The notes beneath the pieces are model-generated. The model saw only the letters and a list, made by a program, of their open reading frames with translations. It searched no databases and had not been told where the DNA came from. 64,000 nt of DNA from Escherichia phage ECO4, in sequence record NC_054911.1. The stretch is one strand, 5' to 3'. The translations under genes and the position numbers were made by a program. The number at the start of each line of letters is the position of its first letter. Positions within the stretch are counted from its first letter, which is position 1. This document shows positions 3,231-52,888 of this stretch, one piece after another.

Positions 3231-3383
3231 TCAATTAGTTGACTTTGTTATAATATCATCAGACGCTTGATTTGTAAACTGGTCTGTGTTATTTTCTTCA
3301 AAAATTTTTTCTACGAATTCCTTGAACGACTCGCGTTCCTGAGCTACATTATGCTCGATTACCTTTTCAAGATTATGACTCAT
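3231..3383 (-). CDS. Small acidic ORF (50 aa), translationally coupled (ATGA) to arn stop
   Basis: ATG overlaps arn TGA; below the 60-aa cutoff of the ORF track; contains the asiA early promoter. Confidence 0.35.
   Translation of the reverse strand: MSHNLEKVIEHNVAQERESFKEFVEKIFEENNTDQFTNQASDDIITKSTN
3247..3279 (-). promoter_or_regulatory. Early promoter-like element upstream of asiA
   Basis: Minus strand GTTTACA, 15-nt spacer, GATATTATAAC. Confidence 0.45.
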
Positions 3384-3658
3384 TCGAAATAATCTTCAAT
3401 TTCGTAATCATGGACATAAATCATTATAGTTTTTAATACATCATCAATACTTTTTCCTGGAGCTGGAATTACGTAAAAATATCCTGCTTTTGAGAGGTCT
3501 TTATAAGTTCCAATCAAGAAATCATTATTCTCAAGATGTAACTCTTCAACTAATTCATTGACAATTGAATGGTATAGGTTTGGTAGAAACTTATATAGCT
3601 TTTCTAGAATATCAATTTTGATTGTGTATTGAACCACGGACTGAGAATCAATAATCAT
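3380..3658 (-). CDS. arn: Arn, anti-restriction (McrBC inhibitor, DNA mimic)
   Basis: 92 aa, acidic; position between asiA and motA as in T4. Confidence 0.75.
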   Translation of the reverse strand: MIIDSQSVVQYTIKIDILEKLYKFLPNLYHSIVNELVEELHLENNDFLIGTYKDLSKAGYFYVIPAPGKSIDDVLKTIMIYVHDYEIEDYFE

Positions 3659-3735
3659 AGACCTTCCCCTTATGTTTCTGTTTGCGATTAGATTCTTTAA
3701 ACGCTTTCTTCTTATCCTTATGGACAGAAGCTTTA

Positions 3736-3960
3736 TTAAAATTGTGTTTTGCGACTAAATTGTTCATAGTGCTGAATTACCTCTCTCAAACACTTGCATG
3801 TGAATGAAAACTTTTTAGCTACACCACATTCAAATATATGTTCTCTTAAATCACGTGTGTCAGTATATCCCATCTCAACAATAAAATGTCTTATTAGATT
3901 TTTATCTTTATCATTGAGAGAATTAAAATAATCGGATTTTGAATTAATTTCCCTGGCCAA
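3736..3960 (-). CDS. Hypothetical protein (74 aa), Cys-containing
   Basis: ORF in arn-motA early cluster. Confidence 0.55.
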   Translation of the reverse strand: MAREINSKSDYFNSLNDKDKNLIRHFIVEMGYTDTRDLREHIFECGVAKKFSFTCKCLREVIQHYEQFSRKTQF

Positions 3961-4240
3961 ATTGAATCACCTTCAGTTGACGTTTTAGTTCTTTTATCAT
4001 TTCTTCGTTCATCGCAATATAAAGATCGCGTAAAGCAGGTTTTAGCATTCCATTTACCGGAGAACTAAATGGGCATACATAATCTTTTCCTACAAGCTTT
4101 TTGGTAAATTCCATATCACAAAATTTAAATGCTGGCTCATTCGCATAAATTCCCCAATTAGTTGACATCATTTTATTGGCATATTCCAGTGCCTGAATTT
4201 GATTCATAATTCCATCGATTTGAAACTTTTTAATATTCAT
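3944..4240 (-). CDS. Hypothetical protein (98 aa)
   Basis: ORF in arn-motA early cluster; overlaps neighbours by a few nt. Confidence 0.6.
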   Translation of the reverse strand: MNIKKFQIDGIMNQIQALEYANKMMSTNWGIYANEPAFKFCDMEFTKKLVGKDYVCPFSSPVNGMLKPALRDLYIAMNEEMIKELKRQLKVIQFGQGN

Positions 4241-4701: not shown

Positions 4702-5027
4702 TTAAACCATCCTTTAATACGTTGCCACAAAGTTTTCTGTTGAGCTTTGTTAACACCAATTGAGCGAATAACTGGTTGAGATTCCTGGAATTCTTTATAA
4801 TCGGCAAGGTAAATTTCGTAAGCTGCATCTGTAAAGGAACTTATCGCTGCCATGAAATTATTGCGAATACCTACTGGAGCATCTTTACTTTCACGAATAA
4901 TCATGTATTTACCAGTCTTAATCTTTACAATAGTTCCAAGATAAGCTCCATGGTACCAAATATCCCAACCCTCTTGAGTAGGTTCTGCACAACGACGAAG
5001 TTCATTGATAATTTCTAACTTGTTCAT
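4698..5027 (-). CDS. Hypothetical protein (109 aa), motA-proximal
   Basis: ORF, ATGA-type overlap with upstream gene. Confidence 0.6.
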
Positions 5028-5950: not shown

Positions 5951-7275
5951 TTGATTTCCTCTAAATCTTTGGTGTATTCTGTAACTACATCAGTAGTTTT
6001 CCAATATTCGTTTTCTTCTTTTTTGGCTTTAGCTTCTTCAGCAAGTTTCTTTGCTTCGTCGGAAGTCATATGAAAAATGTTCATTCCAACTAGTTTATCA
6101 ACATAAGAAGAATACATATCAATTTTAGAAAGTTCTTCGGTCAGTTCTTTGCGAGTTTTACCTTGTACAACAATTTCACCTGAAATTACTTTCTTAATGA
6201 AATGTGCCTTGGCAAAAGCTAAACGAAATGCTGATTCAGTTTCTTTGATTTTGTTATCAATTCGTTTTTGGACATAAGTTTTACGAACTTCAACGAAGTC
6301 TTTGATTAAATCAACTACATTATCGTAAACTTGCAGCTTTCCTTTCTCATTAATGACGGTAATATTCTGGGAACGACGCTCAATCAACCCGAAGTCTTTC
6401 ATAATTTTTGCATGGCGTTCTTCTTCATTATCGCTCAAAGAGTATTCTTTTCGGAATTTAACTTTGAAGCCAAAGCCATGCTCACCACAAGCATCATCCC
6501 ATGTAATGAAGCCTTTATCTTCAAGCGGGTCTAAGATTTTACTCACATAAGTTTCACGATCATACTTATATGGAATCTCAGTGATATGCATTTGAGTTCG
6601 TGAAGTAAACTTATATGTTCCACGAATTTCATATTGCCCATCAATTTCAACGACTTCACCACGAAATTCTGGGAATTCTACCTTCGGTTTAGTTACTTTC
6701 TTTCCTTGAAGAGCTTGCAGTACAGCTTTCTTGACAGAAGAAACACTATGAGGAAGAATGTAAGTTGCATAACCAGTTGCAATACCGGAAACGCCATTAA
6801 GAAGAACAGTAGGAATAATAGGCAAATAGAAAGCAGGCGGAATGTGTTCTTTATCTTGATGTACTGGAGCATATTCAGTATCTTTATATACGTTATAGAA
6901 ATTTTTACTTACACGAGCAAAAATATAACGACTTGCTGCTGCCTTTTGGACAGTACGAGAACCAAAGTTTCCTTGACCGTCTAACAGAGGAAAGTTATTA
7001 TTCCAAGTGTTAGCCATCAAAGCACCTGTGTCTTGCGCAGAGTTTTCACCATGATGATATCCAAGGTCCGCTACACCGCCTGCGATAGAAGCGAGTTTGT
7101 GAAACTTATCTTTATTTCCTCGTGCCAAATCAAGAGCTCGAGCAATAACAAATCGTTGAACTGGCTTAAATCCGTCAATCATATTTGGAATGGCACGATT
7201 TTCAACCGTGTACATAGCATAAGCCAATGCTTCATTATCAATGATACTTTTTAAATCACGATTATTCAGTTGCAT
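5947..7275 (-). CDS. 52: DNA topoisomerase II medium subunit gp52
   Basis: 442 aa, matches T4 gp52 in length and sequence. Confidence 0.95.
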   Translation of the reverse strand: MQLNNRDLKSIIDNEALAYAMYTVENRAIPNMIDGFKPVQRFVIARALDLARGNKDKFHKLASIAGGVADLGYHHGENSAQDTGALMANTWNNNFPLLDGQGNFGSRTVQKAAASRYIFARVSKNFYNVYKDTEYAPVHQDKEHIPPAFYLPIIPTVLLNGVSGIATGYATYILPHSVSSVKKAVLQALQGKKVTKPKVEFPEFRGEVVEIDGQYEIRGTYKFTSRTQMHITEIPYKYDRETYVSKILDPLEDKGFITWDDACGEHGFGFKVKFRKEYSLSDNEEERHAKIMKDFGLIERRSQNITVINEKGKLQVYDNVVDLIKDFVEVRKTYVQKRIDNKIKETESAFRLAFAKAHFIKKVISGEIVVQGKTRKELTEELSKIDMYSSYVDKLVGMNIFHMTSDEAKKLAEEAKAKKEENEYWKTTDVVTEYTKDLEEIK

Positions 7276-7279
7276 AAAT

Positions 7280-7420
7280 TTACCATACTAGTGAATGTAG
7301 TGCCATAATAACATCAGAAATGAAAAGCACGACTTGAATTAATCCGAACATTATTCCGTAATATAATGCTATCAATAAAATAGCAAGGGCTAATGAATAG
7401 CCCAAGATTTTCTTAATCAT
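7280..7420 (-). CDS. Small hydrophobic ORF (46 aa)
   Basis: ATG overlaps the stop of the upstream small ORF; TM-like sequence; position of T4 ac/stp small genes. Confidence 0.3.
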   Translation of the reverse strand: MIKKILGYSLALAILLIALYYGIMFGLIQVVLFISDVIMALHSLVW

Positions 7421-7571
7421 TAGTAGATAACAACACAAATGTTAAATATGCACACATACCCTGAGCTAAAGCTTGCGAAAACACACTGCTGGCATCAATA
7501 CAGATAGTTAAAACACATGCTACTATCCAACAAATAAATGAAATAACTCCTAATAATTTTGCGATATTCAT
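7413..7571 (-). CDS. Small hydrophobic ORF (52 aa)
   Basis: SD GAGGAAAAT before ATG 7571; MNIAKLLGVISFICWIVACVLTICID... membrane peptide. Confidence 0.4.
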   Translation of the reverse strand: MNIAKLLGVISFICWIVACVLTICIDASSVFSQALAQGMCAYLTFVLLSTND

Positions 7572-7581
7572 ATTTTCCTCA

Positions 7582-7599
7582 CTGGCGTCCGAAGACGCC
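7582..7599 (-). other. Hairpin GGCGTC-TTCG-GACGCC immediately upstream of an SD
   Basis: Perfect 6-bp stem with tetraloop; no U-run. Confidence 0.35.
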
Positions 7600-25250: not shown

Positions 25251-25736
25251 TCAAACATTTTCTTCAGAACTTTCATCTGTTTTACCTAAAACAACAGTAG
25301 GAGCATCATCAAATTCATGAATTTTTAGCAAATTTGGATGTAAACTATTCCATACAGAAGAAATAAAGTATGATAAAGCATCTTCACTCGCAATTATAAA
25401 TTTGTTTCCTTTATCTATTTTCCAGTTATATACTGAATCGTACGAATAAAAAGATAAGGGTTTATCATTATATTGTTCTGCGCTAACATTAATGTATTCG
25501 GATTTAGTAAATGCTTCAATTGCTCTAAACGGAATATTTGGTACAGTTTTAATAATACCAATCTTTTTAAGTTTTATTTCAGCATCTTCTGGAACTGGCA
25601 TTGAAACGAAATTTTCTACGAGATACATTGGGTCACAATAACCCTTATCAATCATTACTGCTACTGTAATTGGAACATCTTTAGCAAACGACATACTATT
25701 ACTGCTAATATACATTTCAAACAAAATCGCTTCCAT
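25251..25736 (-). CDS. Hypothetical protein (161 aa), possibly Mrh-like
   Basis: ATG 25736 with SD GAGGAAAATT; size matches my recollection of T4 mrh, not verified. Confidence 0.5.
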
Positions 25737-25744
25737 AATTTTCC

Positions 25745-26086
25745 TCAATCGCAAGATGTAGATGAACAACTAGAATCACAAGAACTTCCACACGAATCGC
25801 CCGTCCATACATGAACAGGAACATTAGTGTCATATGAATCAGAACTAGACTGTGTATTCTGTGCATTAGATGATGTAGTAGGTGTTGACCAGCGCCAAGG
25901 ATTTTTATAATATTCCTGGGCTTCTTCATAAGTCATAGTAACTGCTTCTACTGTTCCATCTCCCATATAAACATATTCAACTACAGTTAAAGGAAGGTAG
26001 TCGTTTGAAATAGGAACTACACCTTCTCCAGGAGCTGTAGAGAAAAAATCCGTAAAGAAATTTTTAAACCAGTTAAAGATAAACAT
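25745..26086 (-). CDS. Hypothetical protein (113 aa) with Cys/Ser-rich C-terminal tail
   Basis: Ends ...[18 protein letters not shown]. Confidence 0.5.
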
Positions 26087-26715: not shown

Positions 26716-27234
26716 TTAATAACCTCGGTCTTGACGAGCGAAGTTTTCAGCATTCTTCAGATAATAAAGTTTAAAGATTTCTTCAGCAGTAAGGCCGAGA
26801 CCTTGGAACATGTTCAGAACGAAATGAAGAATATCAATCATTTCGAATTTAATTTCCAACTGGTCTTGTGGAGACAAATCAGTAATCAGAGTTTCACGAC
26901 GTTCACCATGCTGCGACTTCCAAGGCTTCCATACAGCAGATGCATCTTTTTCGCCATTGCTCATACCACCAAGAGATGTCAGAAGTTCACGGAATTCATC
27001 GTCAATATAATCTTTCTGATTACGCAGCCAATCGACAACTTCACCTGCAGTAGCCAAATCATCAGGATGACGGTTATATTCAGGTTTATCTTTAGCTAAA
27101 CGAACCTGCAAAGATTTCTGCATATCAAGCATAACTTGCAGTGGGTCTTTTTCGTCACCGAGAATATCCCAATATTCATTTTGAGCTTTATCAGCGCCTT
27201 CGATCAGTTGCGAACATTCATTAAAGTAAGCCAT
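26716..27234 (-). CDS. 56: dCTP pyrophosphatase gp56
   Basis: 172 aa from ATG 27234 (MAYFNECSQLIEG...), SD AAAGGAAAAATA; the listed 203-aa form is an upstream extension. Confidence 0.9.
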   Translation of the reverse strand: MAYFNECSQLIEGADKAQNEYWDILGDEKDPLQVMLDMQKSLQVRLAKDKPEYNRHPDDLATAGEVVDWLRNQKDYIDDEFRELLTSLGGMSNGEKDASAVWKPWKSQHGERRETLITDLSPQDQLEIKFEMIDILHFVLNMFQGLGLTAEEIFKLYYLKNAENFARQDRGY

Positions 27235-27305
27235 TATTTTTCCTTTCAATTCATGGGTTAGTAGATTAATTATACAATAAATATATAAAGCAATAAGGAG
27301 GACAT

Positions 27306-27506
27306 ATGGTACAAAAATTAATGGCACTTGTTAATGCCATAAAAGGTAATAAAAAACGTATAGCTTTTACTATTTCTGCTATGATAGGAATTTTACTCTG
27401 GAATTTTGTTTTATCACCAATTGCTATTGCTCATGGCGTTAATATTCCAGTAATTACTCTCGATACATTCGTAGATTTAGCATTTGCTTTGGTTGGGTTA
27501 ATTTAA
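27306..27506 (+). CDS. Plus-strand small membrane protein (66 aa, two predicted TM helices)
   Basis: Strong SD AAGGAGG 5 nt before ATG; hydrophobic; lies in the gap between 56 and 61 on the opposite strand to all neighbours. Confidence 0.5.
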   Translation: MVQKLMALVNAIKGNKKRIAFTISAMIGILLWNFVLSPIAIAHGVNIPVITLDTFVDLAFALVGLI

Positions 27507-31615: not shown

Positions 31616-31978
31616 TTAAAAGAATTTAAATTTTTTCTTTGACCTTTTATTAAATGCATCTTGTAGTTGCATTGTAATACATTTTTCTACATGAGGAGCT
31701 AACTCAGCTTTTCTTTCTTGGTCAAGAACAGCAAAGTCCATTACGACTTTTCCATCAACCCAATCTAATTTTGTCACATACACAATGTGTGTAGAACCAT
31801 CTTCTAGTTTAATGACAATCTCCTGGATAACATTTTCCATAGCGGATTTAATTATCTTAAGAGACTCATTAAAAAGACGTTCTTTTCTTTCTTCTTCCCC
31901 CTCCGAAGAGGGGGATTCATCGATAATTTCTAGATCTAAGTCTAAATCATCTTTATTCATTAAATTCTTCCATATCAC
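31616..31978 (-). CDS. 40: Head vertex assembly chaperone gp40
   Basis: 120 aa ORF between uvsX and 41. Confidence 0.7.
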   Translation of the reverse strand: MIWKNLMNKDDLDLDLEIIDESPSSEGEEERKERLFNESLKIIKSAMENVIQEIVIKLEDGSTHIVYVTKLDWVDGKVVMDFAVLDQERKAELAPHVEKCITMQLQDAFNKRSKKKFKFF

Positions 31979-33134
31979 TTAACTGTTCGAGGTCAGTTTC
32001 TAAATCAGCAGCTGATTTACTTTTACTTTCTGGAGATTTAAATTTTTCAACCTTTGAGTTAATCAATTCATCAACTTCAGCTTCAACAATTTCATTACTA
32101 TCAATAGCACCTAACTGATAAGCACGTTTAATAGCATCACGGAATGGTTGATGCTTAAATAAAGGACCCCAGAATGTAGTGCAGTTGGTATCTTTTGCGC
32201 GCCAAGATTTTTCTTCGCGAATCATCTCACCAGTTTCTTCATCAAGAAATTCACGAGCATACCAACCATTTTTAGGTTTTACCACGAATCCTAATTCTAG
32301 AGCCATATCTAACAATCCAGAATAAGGATCGATACCGCCGTCAAATTTAACATCAATAAAGAATTTACTTTTTTCTTTAACGGTACGAGATTTTTCTACA
32401 TTTAGAACAAATTGATACCCTTGAAGATCAGAACCATCTTTAATCTGACGTTTACCGATAATAAATACGGTATCAGCCGAATACATTACGCCTGTACCAC
32501 CTGTCATCACGGTTTTACTAAACATTTCAATTGTTTCAATTGTATGGTTAACCGCAACACATGGAATATTTTTAATGCTAAAGTAAGGAGTAACAATACG
32601 GAATAATGACTTCAGTGATTTAGCACGAGTCATATCTGCCACAGATTTTTCATTCAAGGCATCTTCAGTTTCTTTCTTAGAAGCCATATTACCGATTGAG
32701 TCGATGAATACAATAACTTTTTCACCGCGCTCAATAGCTTCAAGCTGATTCACCATATCAATTTTTAGCTGTTCAACTGACTGAATCGGCGTATGAATTA
32801 CTCGTTCTGGGTCAACCCCCATGGATCGCAAATAAGCTGGAGTAATACCAAATTCGCTATCATAGAATAGACAAACCGCGTCAGGATATTTGTTCAAATA
32901 TGCCGCAACCATAGTCAAAGACATATTTGATTTAAAGTGTTTAGAAGGCCCTGCGAAAATAGTTAAACCAGACTGCATACCGCCATCAATCGCACCAGAA
33001 ATAGCAATATTAAGCATTGGAATTTTTGTACGGATTACATCCTTTTCATTAAAGAATTTAGATGTAGTCAGTTCAGCAGTCATTTTAGAAGTGGAAGCTT
33101 TAATCAAACGGGATTTTAAATCTGCAATAGACAT
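31953..33134 (-). CDS. uvsX: Recombinase UvsX (RecA-like)
   Basis: 393 aa, matches T4 UvsX; acidic C-terminal tail. Confidence 0.95.
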   Translation of the reverse strand: MSIADLKSRLIKASTSKMTAELTTSKFFNEKDVIRTKIPMLNIAISGAIDGGMQSGLTIFAGPSKHFKSNMSLTMVAAYLNKYPDAVCLFYDSEFGITPAYLRSMGVDPERVIHTPIQSVEQLKIDMVNQLEAIERGEKVIVFIDSIGNMASKKETEDALNEKSVADMTRAKSLKSLFRIVTPYFSIKNIPCVAVNHTIETIEMFSKTVMTGGTGVMYSADTVFIIGKRQIKDGSDLQGYQFVLNVEKSRTVKEKSKFFIDVKFDGGIDPYSGLLDMALELGFVVKPKNGWYAREFLDEETGEMIREEKSWRAKDTNCTTFWGPLFKHQPFRDAIKRAYQLGAIDSNEIVEAEVDELINSKVEKFKSPESKSKSAADLETDLEQLSDMEEFNE

Positions 33135-33211: not shown

Positions 33212-34060
33212 TTAATCAACTGCTATTGGATGAATAGCATTAAACTTATGAAATGCTTCTGATTTTTCTTTACGCGAAACACACATGCGAAGAACCTTTA
33301 ATGGTTCATCTTCTTCACCCAACGATTTTCGTTTTTCAATATTAGAAGTTTTCCAACGAGCTTGCTCTGGAAACTCTCTATTGATTTGCTCAAGCGCTCT
33401 ATTATGTTTAGAATTACTACGAATTGAACTGCACCCGCCAGGAGCTTGTGCTTTTCCGGATACAACCAGATATTTGAACAAGGCCAAATGTGGATAACCT
33501 TGATTAATTAAATTGAGAAATGCATACATATCTTCGCATAAATCAATTTTTCCATACCCAATTTGTTCTGTCGTAAGTTTTCCGAGGTCATACCATGTAT
33601 TCGTGAATCCATATGAATTTTCACGATAATTACCCCAAGATGAAGTAATTTTAAAAATAGGTAGACGAGCATGGCCATGATAATACCCACAATCCATGGC
33701 ATCCTCAACATATTGAATCAATTCATAGAACTGTTCACGAGTTAATTGATTGACTTTATCTACGCAGCGTCGATCATCTCTTTTTCGCATTGAACTCATA
33801 CGAATAGTAGTATCATCGTCAATCATCCAGATTCGTTGACCTGCATACATATCAGTAATTGCTTTACGAGTACCGGCAATTCCGTTTACATCATCAGGAA
33901 TAGTTATAATTTTAGCTTTAGACCCATAGGCATCATAATAAGCTTTTTCTTCATGTTCACGCACTACAATATGGGGTTCATAATCAGTCGGAAACATATC
34001 AAGGGCAGAAACTGCCCCGACACGCTGATAACTTGGAATTACGAATTGAATCATTTCCAC
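33212..34060 (-). CDS. Putative glucosyltransferase (282 aa, not T4 beta-gt type); candidate beta-1,6-glucosyl-alpha-glucose transferase
   Basis: Occupies the beta-gt locus between uvsX and 42; DDD motif (WMIDDDTT) typical of GT-A enzymes; T4 beta-gt is 351 aa. Confidence 0.55.
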   Translation of the reverse strand: MEMIQFVIPSYQRVGAVSALDMFPTDYEPHIVVREHEEKAYYDAYGSKAKIITIPDDVNGIAGTRKAITDMYAGQRIWMIDDDTTIRMSSMRKRDDRRCVDKVNQLTREQFYELIQYVEDAMDCGYYHGHARLPIFKITSSWGNYRENSYGFTNTWYDLGKLTTEQIGYGKIDLCEDMYAFLNLINQGYPHLALFKYLVVSGKAQAPGGCSSIRSNSKHNRALEQINREFPEQARWKTSNIEKRKSLGEEDEPLKVLRMCVSRKEKSEAFHKFNAIHPIAVD

Positions 34061-34791
34061 TCACCTTTATAGTCTTTTTTCACAATATGAGTTTCGCCAG
34101 TATTCCACCAATGATCAACCAAGTAAAAATGACGAGAATATACATGAAGACTTCCAACATTCCATATAATAGAACCTGCTTTATACTGACGAGTTGAATC
34201 GCCTGCATTCAAATCAGATACTAATTTATCTAATACGTATTTTTGCCATGCATAATCATTACGGAATCCGAAGACCACGTCATTTGAGCGCATGCTTACT
34301 ACTGCATTGACTTTCTTATCACGAATCAGGTACTGTACTGTATTAGTACACATGAAATCTGACATACCATCTTTATTGTAGTCAAATTGCATAGATGGAC
34401 GAGTATAAATCATGATACCACGTCGAGAATCAGGATTTTGACCAAGTTCAGCTAAACACATATCATACTGAGCATAGTTATCTTCTGACCAGATAGCCCA
34501 ACCATAATTCGAGTTAATTTCACCTTTAGAAGATGCTACTTGTTGCCAAATCTTCGGTGTTTCACCTGGAATATCTTTAACAAACAAGCTTTTAGATTTA
34601 TACCATTCAAGTTCACGCTGAATGTATTCATCATTAAGAGCGCCAAAAATAAACGGTTCATCTGCTACAAATGATGCGCCAATAATTTCAATAGTTTTAA
34701 CACCAGTTTTATCAACTACGAAATCTTTTTCTTTTAATGCAAGCCCCAAATGAAGACGGATTTCTTCAACTGTCATAGAGTCACTAATCAT
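34051..34791 (-). CDS. 42: dCMP hydroxymethylase gp42
   Basis: 246 aa, thymidylate-synthase fold, matches T4 gp42. Confidence 0.95.
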   Translation of the reverse strand: MISDSMTVEEIRLHLGLALKEKDFVVDKTGVKTIEIIGASFVADEPFIFGALNDEYIQRELEWYKSKSLFVKDIPGETPKIWQQVASSKGEINSNYGWAIWSEDNYAQYDMCLAELGQNPDSRRGIMIYTRPSMQFDYNKDGMSDFMCTNTVQYLIRDKKVNAVVSMRSNDVVFGFRNDYAWQKYVLDKLVSDLNAGDSTRQYKAGSIIWNVGSLHVYSRHFYLVDHWWNTGETHIVKKDYKGEWK

Positions 34792-34898
34792 TTAAACCTC
34801 AATTGATACATTCATATTTAACTTGTAACAGTAATAAACTCCAACCTAAAATAATAGTTGGAATCATAAGAGGAACCGTTACACTATAGTATATACTT

Positions 34899-34924
34899 AT
34901 TATAATCATCAAGATTAAAAGCAA
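34899..34924 (-). promoter_or_regulatory. MotA-dependent middle promoter for gene 42 (MotA box TTGCTTTTA, then TATAAT)
   Basis: Minus strand CATTGCTTTTAATCTTGATGATTATAAT. Confidence 0.5.
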
Positions 34925-34944
34925 TGCTGCTATAATTTTGCTTT

Positions 34945-35196
34945 TCATTCCTTCTCTCTGATGATAATTACCTGATTTGGCTGCGCAGACTTTTTAGTTT
35001 CACCAGCAATTGACCAAATAAATGTAATAAACCAACCAATAATTGACCAGTTAAACAGTAAAGATGTGAAAAAGATTCCTACTGTCGATTTTGACCCACG
35101 CATCAAGGCGATAAACCATGGAAGCATGTATATAATAATAGCCAACACGCCTGAAACTAAAACCATAAAAATTGAACCTGCTACTAAAGTTTCCAT
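34945..35196 (-). CDS. imm: Immunity to superinfection membrane protein Imm
   Basis: 83 aa, two TM helices; position between 43 and 42. Confidence 0.85.
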   Translation of the reverse strand: METLVAGSIFMVLVSGVLAIIIYMLPWFIALMRGSKSTVGIFFTSLLFNWSIIGWFITFIWSIAGETKKSAQPNQVIIIREKE

Positions 35197-35594: not shown

Positions 35595-35831
35595 TCAAAT
35601 GCAAGTAGTAATTACTCCAGTAGTGCTTATGCAGGTATTACCCATTTGCACACCTAAAGATCCATTTGTATTCACATGAAGATTATCGTCAATTTTAACT
35701 GATATTTTACCATTAGTGTGAATAACGGTGCTAGATTCAATCACAGGTTGAGTATCATTTTCAACACTAACAAATGGAACTGCTGCTAATGCAACTAAAC
35801 AAACTGCTAAGCATCCCATAACAATTTTCAT
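35595..35831 (-). CDS. Secreted small protein (78 aa)
   Basis: ATG 35831 with SD GGAG; signal peptide. Confidence 0.55.
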   Translation of the reverse strand: MKIVMGCLAVCLVALAAVPFVSVENDTQPVIESSTVIHTNGKISVKIDDNLHVNTNGSLGVQMGNTCISTTGVITTCI

Positions 35832-35865
35832 TTCATTCTCCAAATCCGTATCAGTAGTTGATAGT

Positions 35866-44251: not shown

Positions 44252-45267
44252 TGTGTTGCCTCTACATATAACTGATTTGCATATTGAATAAGTGCTTCAC
44301 GGTCAGAATCAGTGATGTCTGGAATTGCATTAATGTATTCTTCCATCAACGTCTGAAGAGATTGAACTTCAACTTCTTCACTGTCATCTGACTCGACAGA
44401 GTTATCAATCTTTGACACAACTCGTAATGAATGCACAACTTTTTCTAGTTCAGATTCGAACTTCGTTAGATTTTTGTCTACTTCAGTTACTATAACACGT
44501 ACTGATAGATTTGTAAAATCTTTATAGTCAATTTTTCCTTTAAATGGATAATGAATTCTACGATGCCAGGTAGTGTTGTTTGGAATAAATTCCATTCGTT
44601 CTGTTTCTGTATCAAACATCCAGAACCCACGAGGGTCATTCTCGTCACCTGCAGTTAGTGTCCATGGTGTCCCAATATATCTGACGTTAGCAGCCTCAGA
44701 GATAGTATGGAAGTGACCAGACCACACCTCTTTATAAGTCTTAAGGAAATCAGGTTCAAGACCGTGAGATTTCATTCCTTTATAAAAATAAAATCCATTC
44801 AGTTCCCAGTGACCAACACAAAAAGAAGCAGATGAAGTTTTGATGTGCTCAAGAATTTCACCAGTATTTTCTTCGCACATCCAAGGAATTAAATCAATCA
44901 AACATCCGTCAAAATCTACTGTAGTAGGCTTATCATATACTTTAACATTAGGATATTTAGCCAAAAGCTCAGTAGAGGCATTTGGATGCATTACATTTTT
45001 GTAGTGGAGATCGTGATTTCCTACAATAGTATGTAATGTGATTCCAGCGTCATCAAGCATTTGAACTATTTCACGGGCAAACTCCATAGTTTTATGTGTG
45101 ATTGCTTTTCGCACATCAAAAATATCACCATATTGAATCCATACAGTAATTCCATTTTTCTTAGAATATTCTATCGCTTGCTTAATTCCATCAATTTGAA
45201 TACCGCGAATCCACTCATCATCAGCTTTAACGCCTAAATGCCAATCACCCAAGTTTAGTATTTTCAT
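44248..45267 (-). CDS. 47: Recombination endonuclease subunit gp47 (Mre11/SbcD-like)
   Basis: 339 aa, metallophosphatase motifs (GDWH, GNHD). Confidence 0.95.
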   Translation of the reverse strand: MKILNLGDWHLGVKADDEWIRGIQIDGIKQAIEYSKKNGITVWIQYGDIFDVRKAITHKTMEFAREIVQMLDDAGITLHTIVGNHDLHYKNVMHPNASTELLAKYPNVKVYDKPTTVDFDGCLIDLIPWMCEENTGEILEHIKTSSASFCVGHWELNGFYFYKGMKSHGLEPDFLKTYKEVWSGHFHTISEAANVRYIGTPWTLTAGDENDPRGFWMFDTETERMEFIPNNTTWHRRIHYPFKGKIDYKDFTNLSVRVIVTEVDKNLTKFESELEKVVHSLRVVSKIDNSVESDDSEEVEVQSLQTLMEEYINAIPDITDSDREALIQYANQLYVEATQ

Positions 45268-45868
45268 GGTGTCTTTTCCATCCTAATTTAGCTGCTTTTG
45301 AAACCAGTTCTTTAATTTTTCCTTTTGTCCATTCAGGACCAGGAGGTTCATGACATAACATTTGCTTAACTCCGTTATTATACCATTTTTTACCTTTATT
45401 ATGTGATGAAGCTTTAAATTTATTTGACCTTCCTTTTACATAACCTTCTGGAATATAAGGCAAAAAGGCAGATTTTCCTGTTAATGGATCATGTGAATGT
45501 ATATTTCCTTTACAATTATGAGAACCATATAATGGATGATTTTGTCCTTTATTATCTCTTCCAAATGAACCTTTTGGAGCAGCATATGACATATTAAAGA
45601 ATAATGGATTTTTAACTGCATCATGCAATCGTTGATAATATAACTCGCATTTAATAGCTTCTTCACGCGTATCAAATTCAGCTAAAATGCATGAATCAAA
45701 TAAGTGAGGATTATCTGAAAGCTCTTTATTATAAATTTTCTTATACTTTTTAGATAAAACTGAACCATGATATCCAGCTAAATGCCTATCTAAAGACGTA
45801 GATCCAATATAAAAAGGAGGAAGTTTATCTCCACTATATATTGTTAAATAAGTTATATATTTTTTCAT
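45245..45868 (-). CDS. GIY-YIG-like (Seg-type) homing endonuclease candidate, 207 aa
   Basis: N-terminal YITYLTIYSG...PFYIGST resembles GIY-YIG; basic NUMOD-like repeats (NPLYGSHN, GKKWYNNG); overlaps gene 47 start by 23 nt. Confidence 0.5.
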   Translation of the reverse strand: MKKYITYLTIYSGDKLPPFYIGSTSLDRHLAGYHGSVLSKKYKKIYNKELSDNPHLFDSCILAEFDTREEAIKCELYYQRLHDAVKNPLFFNMSYAAPKGSFGRDNKGQNHPLYGSHNCKGNIHSHDPLTGKSAFLPYIPEGYVKGRSNKFKASSHNKGKKWYNNGVKQMLCHEPPGPEWTKGKIKELVSKAAKLGWKRHHENTKLG

Positions 45869-46030: not shown

Positions 46031-46050
46031 AGGGCCGAAGCCCTTTATTT
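46031..46050 (-). other. Hairpin AAAGGGCCGAAGCCCTTT overlapping the alpha-gt stop codon
   Basis: Exact GGGCCGAAGCCC core. Confidence 0.4.
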
Positions 46051-47247
46051 TGTAATAATGTCAAACTGTTCTTTAAAGCAGAAGCTTGAATCTTGATGCT
46101 GATACAAAAATTCATATGCTTTTTCTCGCTCACGGTCATAAAGAGCTCGGTCAGATGACAGTTCTTTAATACGTTCAAACGTTGATTCCATATCATTTTC
46201 ATCAAACCAAATGATACCGCTATCATGCGAGGTCAAAGGAGTATTATCAACACGGAATTTTAAATTTTCGCCAGTAGATTTCCAAAATACCGGAATTGTT
46301 CCACATGCACCAAGCTCGAGATGAGTATATTCTAAAGAACGTTGTAGATATTTTTTATCCAACTTACTCAGCTGATAACCAAATCCGGATTTACTCATGC
46401 GTTCAAGCATTTCGCTATTTACATAACGGTCAAGAATTTGCGTTGGCAAATTAGGAGCAATTTTAATTTGGTCTACTTGATGAAGACGATAATACTCGTA
46501 TGGAATTCCTTTTTCTTTAATAGGAATGAACGCTGGAGAACGTTCCAGACCTTCCATAATAGTACTTAGTCCTGCAGGTTTAAGATGTTTTTCATGAAAA
46601 TCAAACATCTGATAAAAACCTTTCCATGTAGTCGTACGACCAATCCAACGGTTGATATTCATGTTAATTTCAGAAACATCTTTCCAGTAGGTTGATCTAA
46701 CCTTCGCAATATCCATAGGAGGCTGAAAGTTATATACTGTCGGTGCTTCTTCAATATCATCAAACAGAGAAACTGTTTCAGGATACCATTCTTTCATCAG
46801 AACTTTATTAAAATCACCATTATCAGAATGGCTAAAAATAACATCAGCTCGACGAACAGTTTCTTCTAATCCCAAATTTCGACGCAAAGAAAGAGAAGAA
46901 TGGTCATGTTGATAAACTACAACACGAACAGAAGGTTTAATGTTATCAATAATTTTTTTATAGTTATTAATAGTGTCTTCTTCAACCGAAGTAGCAGGAA
47001 CTGAATTAATAATTAGAATATCACAATCATTTACCAGCTTAAGTGTTTTATCATATTCTTTTGCCAATAAAACCGGAATTGAAAATGATTTATAATCATG
47101 CGCGCAATTACGAGTAAATGATTTATCTTTAGCATAAACCAAAGTTACTTCATGACCATTTTTAATAAACCAATCACGCTGCTCAAGAGAAAATTTAGTT
47201 ACACCGCAACCTTCAAGACCCCGAGCCAGAAAAATGCATACTTTCAT
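46045..47247 (-). CDS. a-gt: Alpha-glucosyltransferase
   Basis: 400 aa, matches T4 alpha-gt. Confidence 0.9.
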   Translation of the reverse strand: MKVCIFLARGLEGCGVTKFSLEQRDWFIKNGHEVTLVYAKDKSFTRNCAHDYKSFSIPVLLAKEYDKTLKLVNDCDILIINSVPATSVEEDTINNYKKIIDNIKPSVRVVVYQHDHSSLSLRRNLGLEETVRRADVIFSHSDNGDFNKVLMKEWYPETVSLFDDIEEAPTVYNFQPPMDIAKVRSTYWKDVSEINMNINRWIGRTTTWKGFYQMFDFHEKHLKPAGLSTIMEGLERSPAFIPIKEKGIPYEYYRLHQVDQIKIAPNLPTQILDRYVNSEMLERMSKSGFGYQLSKLDKKYLQRSLEYTHLELGACGTIPVFWKSTGENLKFRVDNTPLTSHDSGIIWFDENDMESTFERIKELSSDRALYDREREKAYEFLYQHQDSSFCFKEQFDIITK

Positions 47248-51590: not shown

Positions 51591-52061
51591 TTAATCATGT
51601 TTCCACACCCCATCGGTATTTGACCAAAGTCGCTGATTATCTGATCCTCGCCACAGCTTTTTGGTCGGAAGATTTTTCTCATACTTCCCATCAATAATAA
51701 CATCAACATATTTAAGCATTTCTAGTTGTTTAATATCTTCAAACTTATATCCTGTCCACAACCAAATGCTTTTATTGGGATAAAGATTTTTAACTGTTTG
51801 AACGATGCAATGAATCACGTCTCTGTTATCAGGATAAAGAGGGTCACCTCCGGTTATAGTTAATCCTTCTATATAATCATTATTCAAACATTCAATTAAT
51901 TGTTCTAGTGTTTCACCAGTGAATGGAATACCATTTCTAGCATTCCATGTTGATTTATTATAACACCCTTCGCATTTATGCAAACAACCTGTAACGAAAA
52001 GAACGACCCTGCATCCAGGGCCATTAACAAAGCAGCACGGGTATATTCTGTCATAATTCAT
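51591..52061 (-). CDS. nrdG: Anaerobic ribonucleotide reductase activating protein NrdG (radical SAM)
   Basis: 156 aa from ATG 52061; CLHKCEGC iron-sulfur motif; ATG overlaps stop of upstream endonuclease ORF. Confidence 0.9.
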   Translation of the reverse strand: MNYDRIYPCCFVNGPGCRVVLFVTGCLHKCEGCYNKSTWNARNGIPFTGETLEQLIECLNNDYIEGLTITGGDPLYPDNRDVIHCIVQTVKNLYPNKSIWLWTGYKFEDIKQLEMLKYVDVIIDGKYEKNLPTKKLWRGSDNQRLWSNTDGVWKHD

Positions 52062-52888
52062 AATAATATCCAATTTTTCCAAGCTTCATCAGTAGAATTA
52101 CAGCGTTTTAGTATAAGATGTCTAGAAACTTTTATGGCATTTGAGCACTTTTTAATTGAATCATATTTAATACCGTCAACTGAAACGGTTTTGCTAATTG
52201 GAGAAATTTTTCCATACATTGGATTTTTTGAACCAACTTGAAGTCCTTTTAAAGCTTTTGAAAGCTTTTGTCTAGATTCCAATGACATGGGAGAATTCTT
52301 TTTACCTTCAATAATTCGCTTGCGATGAAGTTCGCGTTCTTCTTCACTCAAAGAATTGTAATATTTTTTAACACCGTTTGATATAGATAATTTATCTTTC
52401 TCAGACCGCTCTCCAGCTAATTTACTTCTAACATCTTTTCGCTTCATAGCTATGCTTACGGCTTTATTTAAATTTGCTTGATGCTCTGGCGTACGTTTAT
52501 ATTTCTTTAAAGCACGTGAAATAGCTATTTTAGTTTCTTCTGTTCTCTTTTTACCTTTATTTGCTAAACTATTTTTGCGGCGATGTTCAAGTGTCTGTTC
52601 ATAGGCAGTTCCACCTTTTCCACCAGGTTTAATATTATATGTATTTTCTTTTAGACAATACTCTTCGGTTACAAGTTCAGCTTCTTTATCATACATCTGT
52701 TTTTCATTATCAAAAACATGTAAAATTTCTTTATTAAAATTTTTTCTACCATATTTTAATAAAGCGGCACGAATCAATGTTCCTGACCCCATATAACCGT
52801 CATTTATGTTATCGGTGCTATGCGCACCGATATATTCCTTTGAATTAATTATATTTGTTATTTTATAAATTATATAATACCTATGCAT
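52058..52888 (-). mobile_element. Free-standing GIY-YIG homing endonuclease (276 aa) between nrdD and nrdG
   Basis: N-terminus YIIYKITNIINSKEYIGAH (GIY-YIG), NUMOD3-like repeats, C-terminal HTH-like VDGIKYDSIKKCSNAIKVSRHLILKRCNS resembling I-TevI architecture. Confidence 0.75.

Follow-up and report, generated by a model that had tools for sequence, protein, structure and literature searches.

A T2/T6-type beta-glucosyl-HMC-alpha-glucosyltransferase gene is predicted between uvsX and gene 42 of Escherichia phage ECO4

The gene that lies between uvsX and gene 42 in Escherichia phage ECO4 very probably encodes a T2/T6-type beta-glucosyl-HMC-alpha-glucosyltransferase (ggt, also known as ba-gt or TAGT), a predicted GT-A-fold enzyme that would make gentiobiosyl-hmC. 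The analysis covered a window of 64,000 nt of record NC_054911.1, meaning the whole stretch of DNA under study, and the assignment is based on how closely the protein matches its T2 and T6 counterparts, on the family to which it belongs, on its predicted fold and conserved motifs, and on the finding of gene 42 and a-gt in the same window. The chemistry of ggt and its effect on host defence are taken from the T2/T6 literature, and we infer the roles of individual residues. The finding is already known, every element of it having been published; that the T6 enzyme has a GT-A fold and is syntenic with T4 beta-gt was published in 2026, and T6 mutants with ba-gt deleted have also been characterised. 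Classing ECO4 as a T2/T6-type Tequatrovirus, with a-gt plus TAGT and no b-gt in the window, adds nothing new on the enzyme family. Its practical value lies in correct annotation, as many records say 'hypothetical' or, wrongly, 'beta-glucosyltransferase', and in a predicted DNA modification type for phage-host work. The genes and the initiation region that bear on the assignment are the following.

31953..33134, minus strand: uvsX, the downstream neighbour of ggt (open reading frame; synteny with RB18, T6 and T2; 77-nt spacer to ggt)
33212..34054, minus strand: ggt (ba-gt, TAGT) coding sequence, probable beta-glucosyl-HMC-alpha-glucosyltransferase, 280 aa plus stop at 33212-33214 (open reading frame; PHROG 842; PF20691; T2/T6 identity)
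34055..34067, minus strand: ggt translation initiation region (AAGGTGAG plus ATGA overlap, sequence read directly)
34051..34791, minus strand: gene 42, dCMP hydroxymethylase (246-aa open reading frame near-identical to T4 gp42; Pfam Thymidylat_synt)
46045..47247, minus strand: a-gt, DNA alpha-glucosyltransferase, 400 aa (365/400 residues, 91%, identical to T4 a-gt; Pfam AGT, E 1.8e-237)
26716..27327: gp56-like NTP pyrophosphatase

The closest relatives of the ggt protein are the enzymes of T2 and T6. It is identical to T2 ggt (MH751506) at 277 of 280 residues (99%), the differences on the T2 side being R11H, K46R and P251S, and to the annotated part of T6 ggt (MH550421) at 257 of 261 (98%), where four substitutions over residues 20-280 (Y40N, K46R, D55G, R106H on the T6 side) separate the two. 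The 280-aa length, the position between gene 42 and uvsX, the 4-nt overlap with gene 42 and the companion genes 42 and a-gt are likewise shared with the T2 and T6 genes. In PHROGs, a single family, phrog_842 ('beta-glucosyl-HMC-alpha-glucosyltransferase'), is matched over almost the full length (E 1.9e-89). The sole Pfam family is PF20691, TAGT, or TET-associated glycosyltransferase, with 38.8 bits against a gathering cutoff of 27.5 and coverage of profile positions 2-205 of 205; Glycos_transf_2 of the same database is not matched, and NCBIfam holds no family matching the protein. TAGT has been placed as a sister group to GT2 (PMC13216743). The identities and family matches uphold the sequence-only reading of the gene, which had proposed an enzyme of T2/T6 type adding a second glucose.

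Membership of the TAGT family could also be reconciled with another donor or acceptor, that is, with transfer of a different sugar or with action on beta-glucosyl-hmC or bare hmC. Specificity in the family varies, and TAGT homologs occur with alpha-GT, with beta-GT, or alone in 288/753 phage genomes (PMC13216743). However, the 98-99% identity to the T2/T6 enzymes, together with the presence of a-gt and the absence of b-gt in the window, makes altered specificity very unlikely, and assignment to the T2/T6 activity is preferred.

In T4, the interval between uvsX and gene 42 holds segA plus the 351-aa b-gt, whereas in T6, T2 and RB18 it holds ggt alone, as in the window, which lacks segA at this locus. 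T4 b-gt (PDB 1JG7) has a GT-B fold. The two enzymes thus occupy the same slot, and both transfer glucose from UDP-glucose to form a beta-glucoside on modified phage DNA (PMC13216743, PMC13390438); they differ in fold, which is GT-B in T4 and predicted GT-A here, and in acceptor, which is bare hmC for the T4 enzyme and alpha-glucosyl-hmC for ggt. High identity to T4 beta-gt had been named beforehand as grounds for rejecting the T2/T6 assignment. BLASTP against the 351-aa T4 protein gave a best E of 2.2 over 8 residues, which amounts to no similarity, and tblastn with T4 b-gt found no match at E<=1 in the whole 64-kb window, where no b-gt homolog was detected. That the gene is a diverged or shortened GT-B beta-glucosyltransferase of the T4 type, attaching a first, beta-linked glucose to hmC, would agree with its position in the T4 b-gt slot; given the BLASTP and tblastn outcomes, fold matches that are GT-A rather than GT-B, and the TAGT match in Pfam, this explanation deserves virtually no credence.

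The occupant of the slot is not unusual. A 1301-bp segment comprising the end of uvsX, ggt and the start of gene 42 is covered to at least 80% in 473 phage records, mostly at 95-99% identity, and the uvsX–ggt–42 arrangement is the common, published one; among Tequatrovirus phages the T2/T6 type, with a-gt plus TAGT, is in the majority. The description of the beta-gt locus as filled by a different, shorter glycosyltransferase is therefore apt when T4, with segA and its 351-aa b-gt, is the reference, and loses its force as a peculiarity of this phage in view of the 473 records. As a separate observation, the segA slot beside uvsX is empty and a segA-like match occurs in the window only at 52544-52882. 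It falls within a 276-aa open reading frame (52058-52888, minus strand) that carries a NUMOD3 motif and an I-TevI-type DNA-binding domain and whose N-terminal part is 49% identical to T4 SegA, pointing to a seg-like GIY-YIG homing endonuclease.

The fold of ggt was approached by structure prediction and profile comparison. The homologous-protein search returned 11 clusters only, which left AlphaFold2 with a shallow alignment and gave a model that is weak in its C-terminal half. The model is moderately confident overall (pLDDT 70.5, pTM 0.72), with values of 85-95 over residues 1-80 and weak regions at 126-151, 194-211 and 261-280, the first two of which fall below 50. Its fold matches are GT-A enzymes, GalNAc-T1, GnT-I, RmlT, TarP and TarS among them, the Foldseek result is concordant, and no GT-B enzyme appears. 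A PDB search with the single ggt sequence gave no match; the ggt family profile, run against PDB sequences, gave one marginal match, AvpGT 9jma_A, whose E of 0.23 restricted its use to the placing of motifs. Bacterial GT2-like inverting GT-A enzymes (such as AvpGT 9jma, TarS/TarP, K4CP and BcsA) and the WrtF fucosyltransferase 9omh are also among the closest known systems. The HMM and fold comparisons proposed with the sequence-only reading hence converge on TAGT and PHROG 842 and on a GT-A fold, predicted from the model, in which the DDD motif would occupy the DXD position.

Conservation was assessed in an alignment of the ggt protein with nine relatives (98-32% identity). Invariant residues are M1, I6 P7 S8 Y9, R11, G58 I59, T62 R63, D79 D80 D81, D175, G206 G207, S209 and R212. 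Three motifs were placed on the gene.

34022..34039, minus strand: IPSYQR motif, residues 6-11, at the end of beta-strand 1 (invariant I6 P7 S8 Y9 R11; model strand E3-7, pLDDT 85-95)
33812..33820, minus strand: DDD, D79 D80 D81, predicted DXD metal / UDP-sugar binding motif (invariant in the alignment; aligns with LDDDD of 9jma_A)
33530..33535, minus strand: E174-D175 ('CEDMY'), candidate catalytic base (D175 invariant, E174 near-invariant)

In the marginal alignment to 9jma_A (E 0.23), FVIPSYQR falls on VIIPTYNR and WMLDDD on AFLDDDD. The IPSYQR motif, aligned in this way with viiPtYnR of AvpGT 9jma, appears equivalent to the GT2 'IPTYNR' nucleotide-binding motif. The aspartate triplet, which has the sequence context WMIDDDTTI, directly follows strand 74-77 in the model, and the GT-A-like DDD motif noticed from the letters alone can be read as the invariant DXD of a GT2-like fold. 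In GT2 enzymes, an acidic base lies about 90-100 residues past the DXD, and by analogy E174-D175 might act as the base of an inverting GT-A enzyme. Because a beta-glucoside would be produced from UDP-alpha-glucose, the mechanism should be inverting. In the proposed active site, the nucleotide would be bound by IPSYQR together with the NGIAGTR segment, metal and diphosphate would be bound by DDD79-81 as the DXD site, and the base for inverting conversion of UDP-alpha-Glc to a beta-glucoside would come from an acidic side chain, probably that of D175.

The limits of the gene were examined at its junction with gene 42. The open reading frame list gives a minus-strand frame at 33212..34060, 282 aa from a GTG, flanked by uvsX and gene 42. 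The coding-strand sequence at the junction, read directly, is ...AAAGGTGAGTGGAAATGATT, or, in a longer reading, ...AAAGGTGAGTGGAAATGATTCAATTC. The ggt ATG (34054-34052) shares the letters ATGA with the TGA stop of gene 42 (34053-34051), a 4-nt overlap that is likewise annotated in RB18, T2 and T6 AP018814; a Shine-Dalgarno-like AAGGTGAG stands at 34060-34067, 6 nt upstream of this ATG; and an 843-nt ggt coding sequence (280 aa) is annotated in RB18 and T2. Given the overlap, the AAGGTGAG element and the RB18/T2 annotation, the product is most likely 280 aa long (33212..34054), and the true start is almost certainly the ATG at 34052-34054. The GTG at 34058-34060 was rejected as a start, since it lies within the ribosome-binding region, and the ATG at 34054 was preferred, as in RB18 and T2. 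The earlier account of a 282-aa protein between uvsX and gene 42 is accordingly retained as to frame and position, and its length is amended to a likely 280 aa.

Other features of the interval are unremarkable. The base composition of ggt resembles that of its neighbours (GC 0.35-0.39), and a pseudogene reading was discarded, the frame being intact and all invariant residues kept. Between 33000 and 35300, promoter-like sites (14 vs 10.9±3.7 expected) and terminator-like sites (2 vs 1.0±1.0 expected) are not above chance. A hairpin at 34002-34018 lies inside the ggt open reading frame and was treated as a chance occurrence.

The companion genes bear on the substrate. Because gene 42 and a-gt are both present in the window, the acceptor alpha-glucosyl-hmC can be made by window genes. 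As predicted from their sequences, gene 42 makes the hmC precursor, and ggt appears to be translationally coupled to it through the ATGA overlap. In the proposed pathway, gp42 would make hmdCMP, hmC would then enter phage DNA, alpha-gt would glucosylate it in alpha linkage, and ggt would add a second glucose from UDP-glucose, beta-1,6 onto the alpha-glucose, to give gentiobiosyl-hmC. The pathway is established for T2/T6 (PMC13216743; PMC11078745; bioRxiv 10.64898/2026.02.25.707755) and is carried over here by near-identity; the modification itself has been recorded in T2, in T6 and in Tequatrovirus isolates that carry TAGT (PMC11078745, PMC13390438). An open reading frame at 25251-25769 was considered for gp56 and proved to be an MRH-like protein instead. 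Gene 42, 741 nt long in T4, T2, T6 and the window, is annotated at only 537 nt (7052-7588 of the compared stretch) in the RB18 record MH553563, where either the start was set late or the gene is disrupted.

The second sugar would hide alpha-glucosyl-hmC from defences that read the monoglucosylated base. In T6, loss of ba-gt raises sensitivity to the Brig1 glycosylase and turns the phage DNA into a Brig1 substrate (PMC11078745). BapA, which frees glucose from the DNA of T6 delta-g-gt and leaves that of wild-type T6 untouched, is unable to deglucosylate gentiobiosyl-5hmC (bioRxiv 10.64898/2026.02.25.707755). DNA with gentiobiosyl-hmC is still attacked by GmrSD (PMC13216743). The expectation that a second glucose alters recognition by host defences is thus documented for T6 with Brig1 and BapA: ggt decides between one and two glucoses on phage cytosines, and in T6 this choice shifts sensitivity to both.

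How far the cytosines of ECO4 would be converted is a separate question. Gentiobiosyl-hmC amounts to only ~5% in T2 despite a 99% identical gene (PMC13390438; bioRxiv 10.64898/2026.02.25.707755). Since the converted fraction of hmC ranges from ~5% (T2) to ~72% (T6) among near-identical enzymes, the extent of modification is not readable from sequence. The reference records themselves carry deviant alleles, a thread that is only mildly novel and that concerns the T2/T6 records, not the window. In T2 MH751506 (ggt at 3286-4128 of the compared stretch), R11H falls in an invariant column and P251S at a near-invariant site; both are possible hypomorphic changes. In T6 MH550421, codon 10 is TAG (4950-4952 of the compared stretch; window 34025-34027) in place of the CAG shared by T2, the second T6 record and the window. 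As a result of this TAG, the MH550421 gene is annotated from M20 as 261 aa, a product that would be without beta-strand 1 and the IPSYQR motif. The exact TAG-bearing 70-mer is present in no other of 441 matching phage records. In T6 AP018814/NC_054907, one GAT of the GAT-GAT-GAT present in MH550421 is lost (~1442-1447 of the compared stretch; window 33812-33820), changing DDD to DD, a deletion unique among 465 matching records that could be a slippage mutation in a laboratory stock or an assembly error. Any of these changes might contribute to the T2/T6 difference, or they may be stock mutations or sequencing errors.

Two views of the ECO4 allele follow from these data. The gene may be intact yet functionally weak or dispensable, as in T2, leaving the DNA essentially alpha-monoglucosylated with gentiobiosyl-hmC as a minor component. 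The ~5% found in T2 with a 99% identical gene is in keeping with this, and the private changes in laboratory records (T6 TAG, T6 DD, T2 R11H/P251S) suggest weak laboratory selection. However, the window allele agrees with the family consensus at residues 11 and 251, where T2 has R11H and P251S, and at both T6 lesion sites, and its reading frame and translational coupling are intact; a weak gene is regarded as possible and somewhat doubtful. Conversely, because the consensus residue is present at every deviant reference site, the window allele could be a fully active 'wild' form that makes mostly gentiobiosyl-hmC, the T2/T6 difference arising from hypomorphic substitutions such as T2 R11H as ggt drifts in laboratory stocks no longer exposed to defences of the glycosylase type. 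This sequence-based conjecture is speculative and, on balance, unlikely.

Three further open reading frames in the window, all on the minus strand, merit mention. At 34799-34948, the gap between gene 42 and imm is taken up by a strongly hydrophobic 49-aa frame that shares bases with the imm stop codon. T4 has a 100% identical copy, unannotated in NC_000866, and in T2 and T6 substitutions have not closed the frame. It falls in phrog_3610, a family of unknown function, and probably encodes a real small membrane protein. An 82-aa frame at 35595-35843, between imm.1 and gene 43, matches phrog_4189 (unknown function) and has a signal/TM-like N-terminus; the annotations of RB18 and T2 include it, those of T4 and T6 do not. 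Genes 47 and 47.1 are separated by an inserted 207-aa frame at 45245-45868 that resembles a homing endonuclease, matching phrog_10820 at E 1e-94 and, below the cutoff, Pfam GIY-YIG at E 3e-4; it is absent from this position in T4 and T6.
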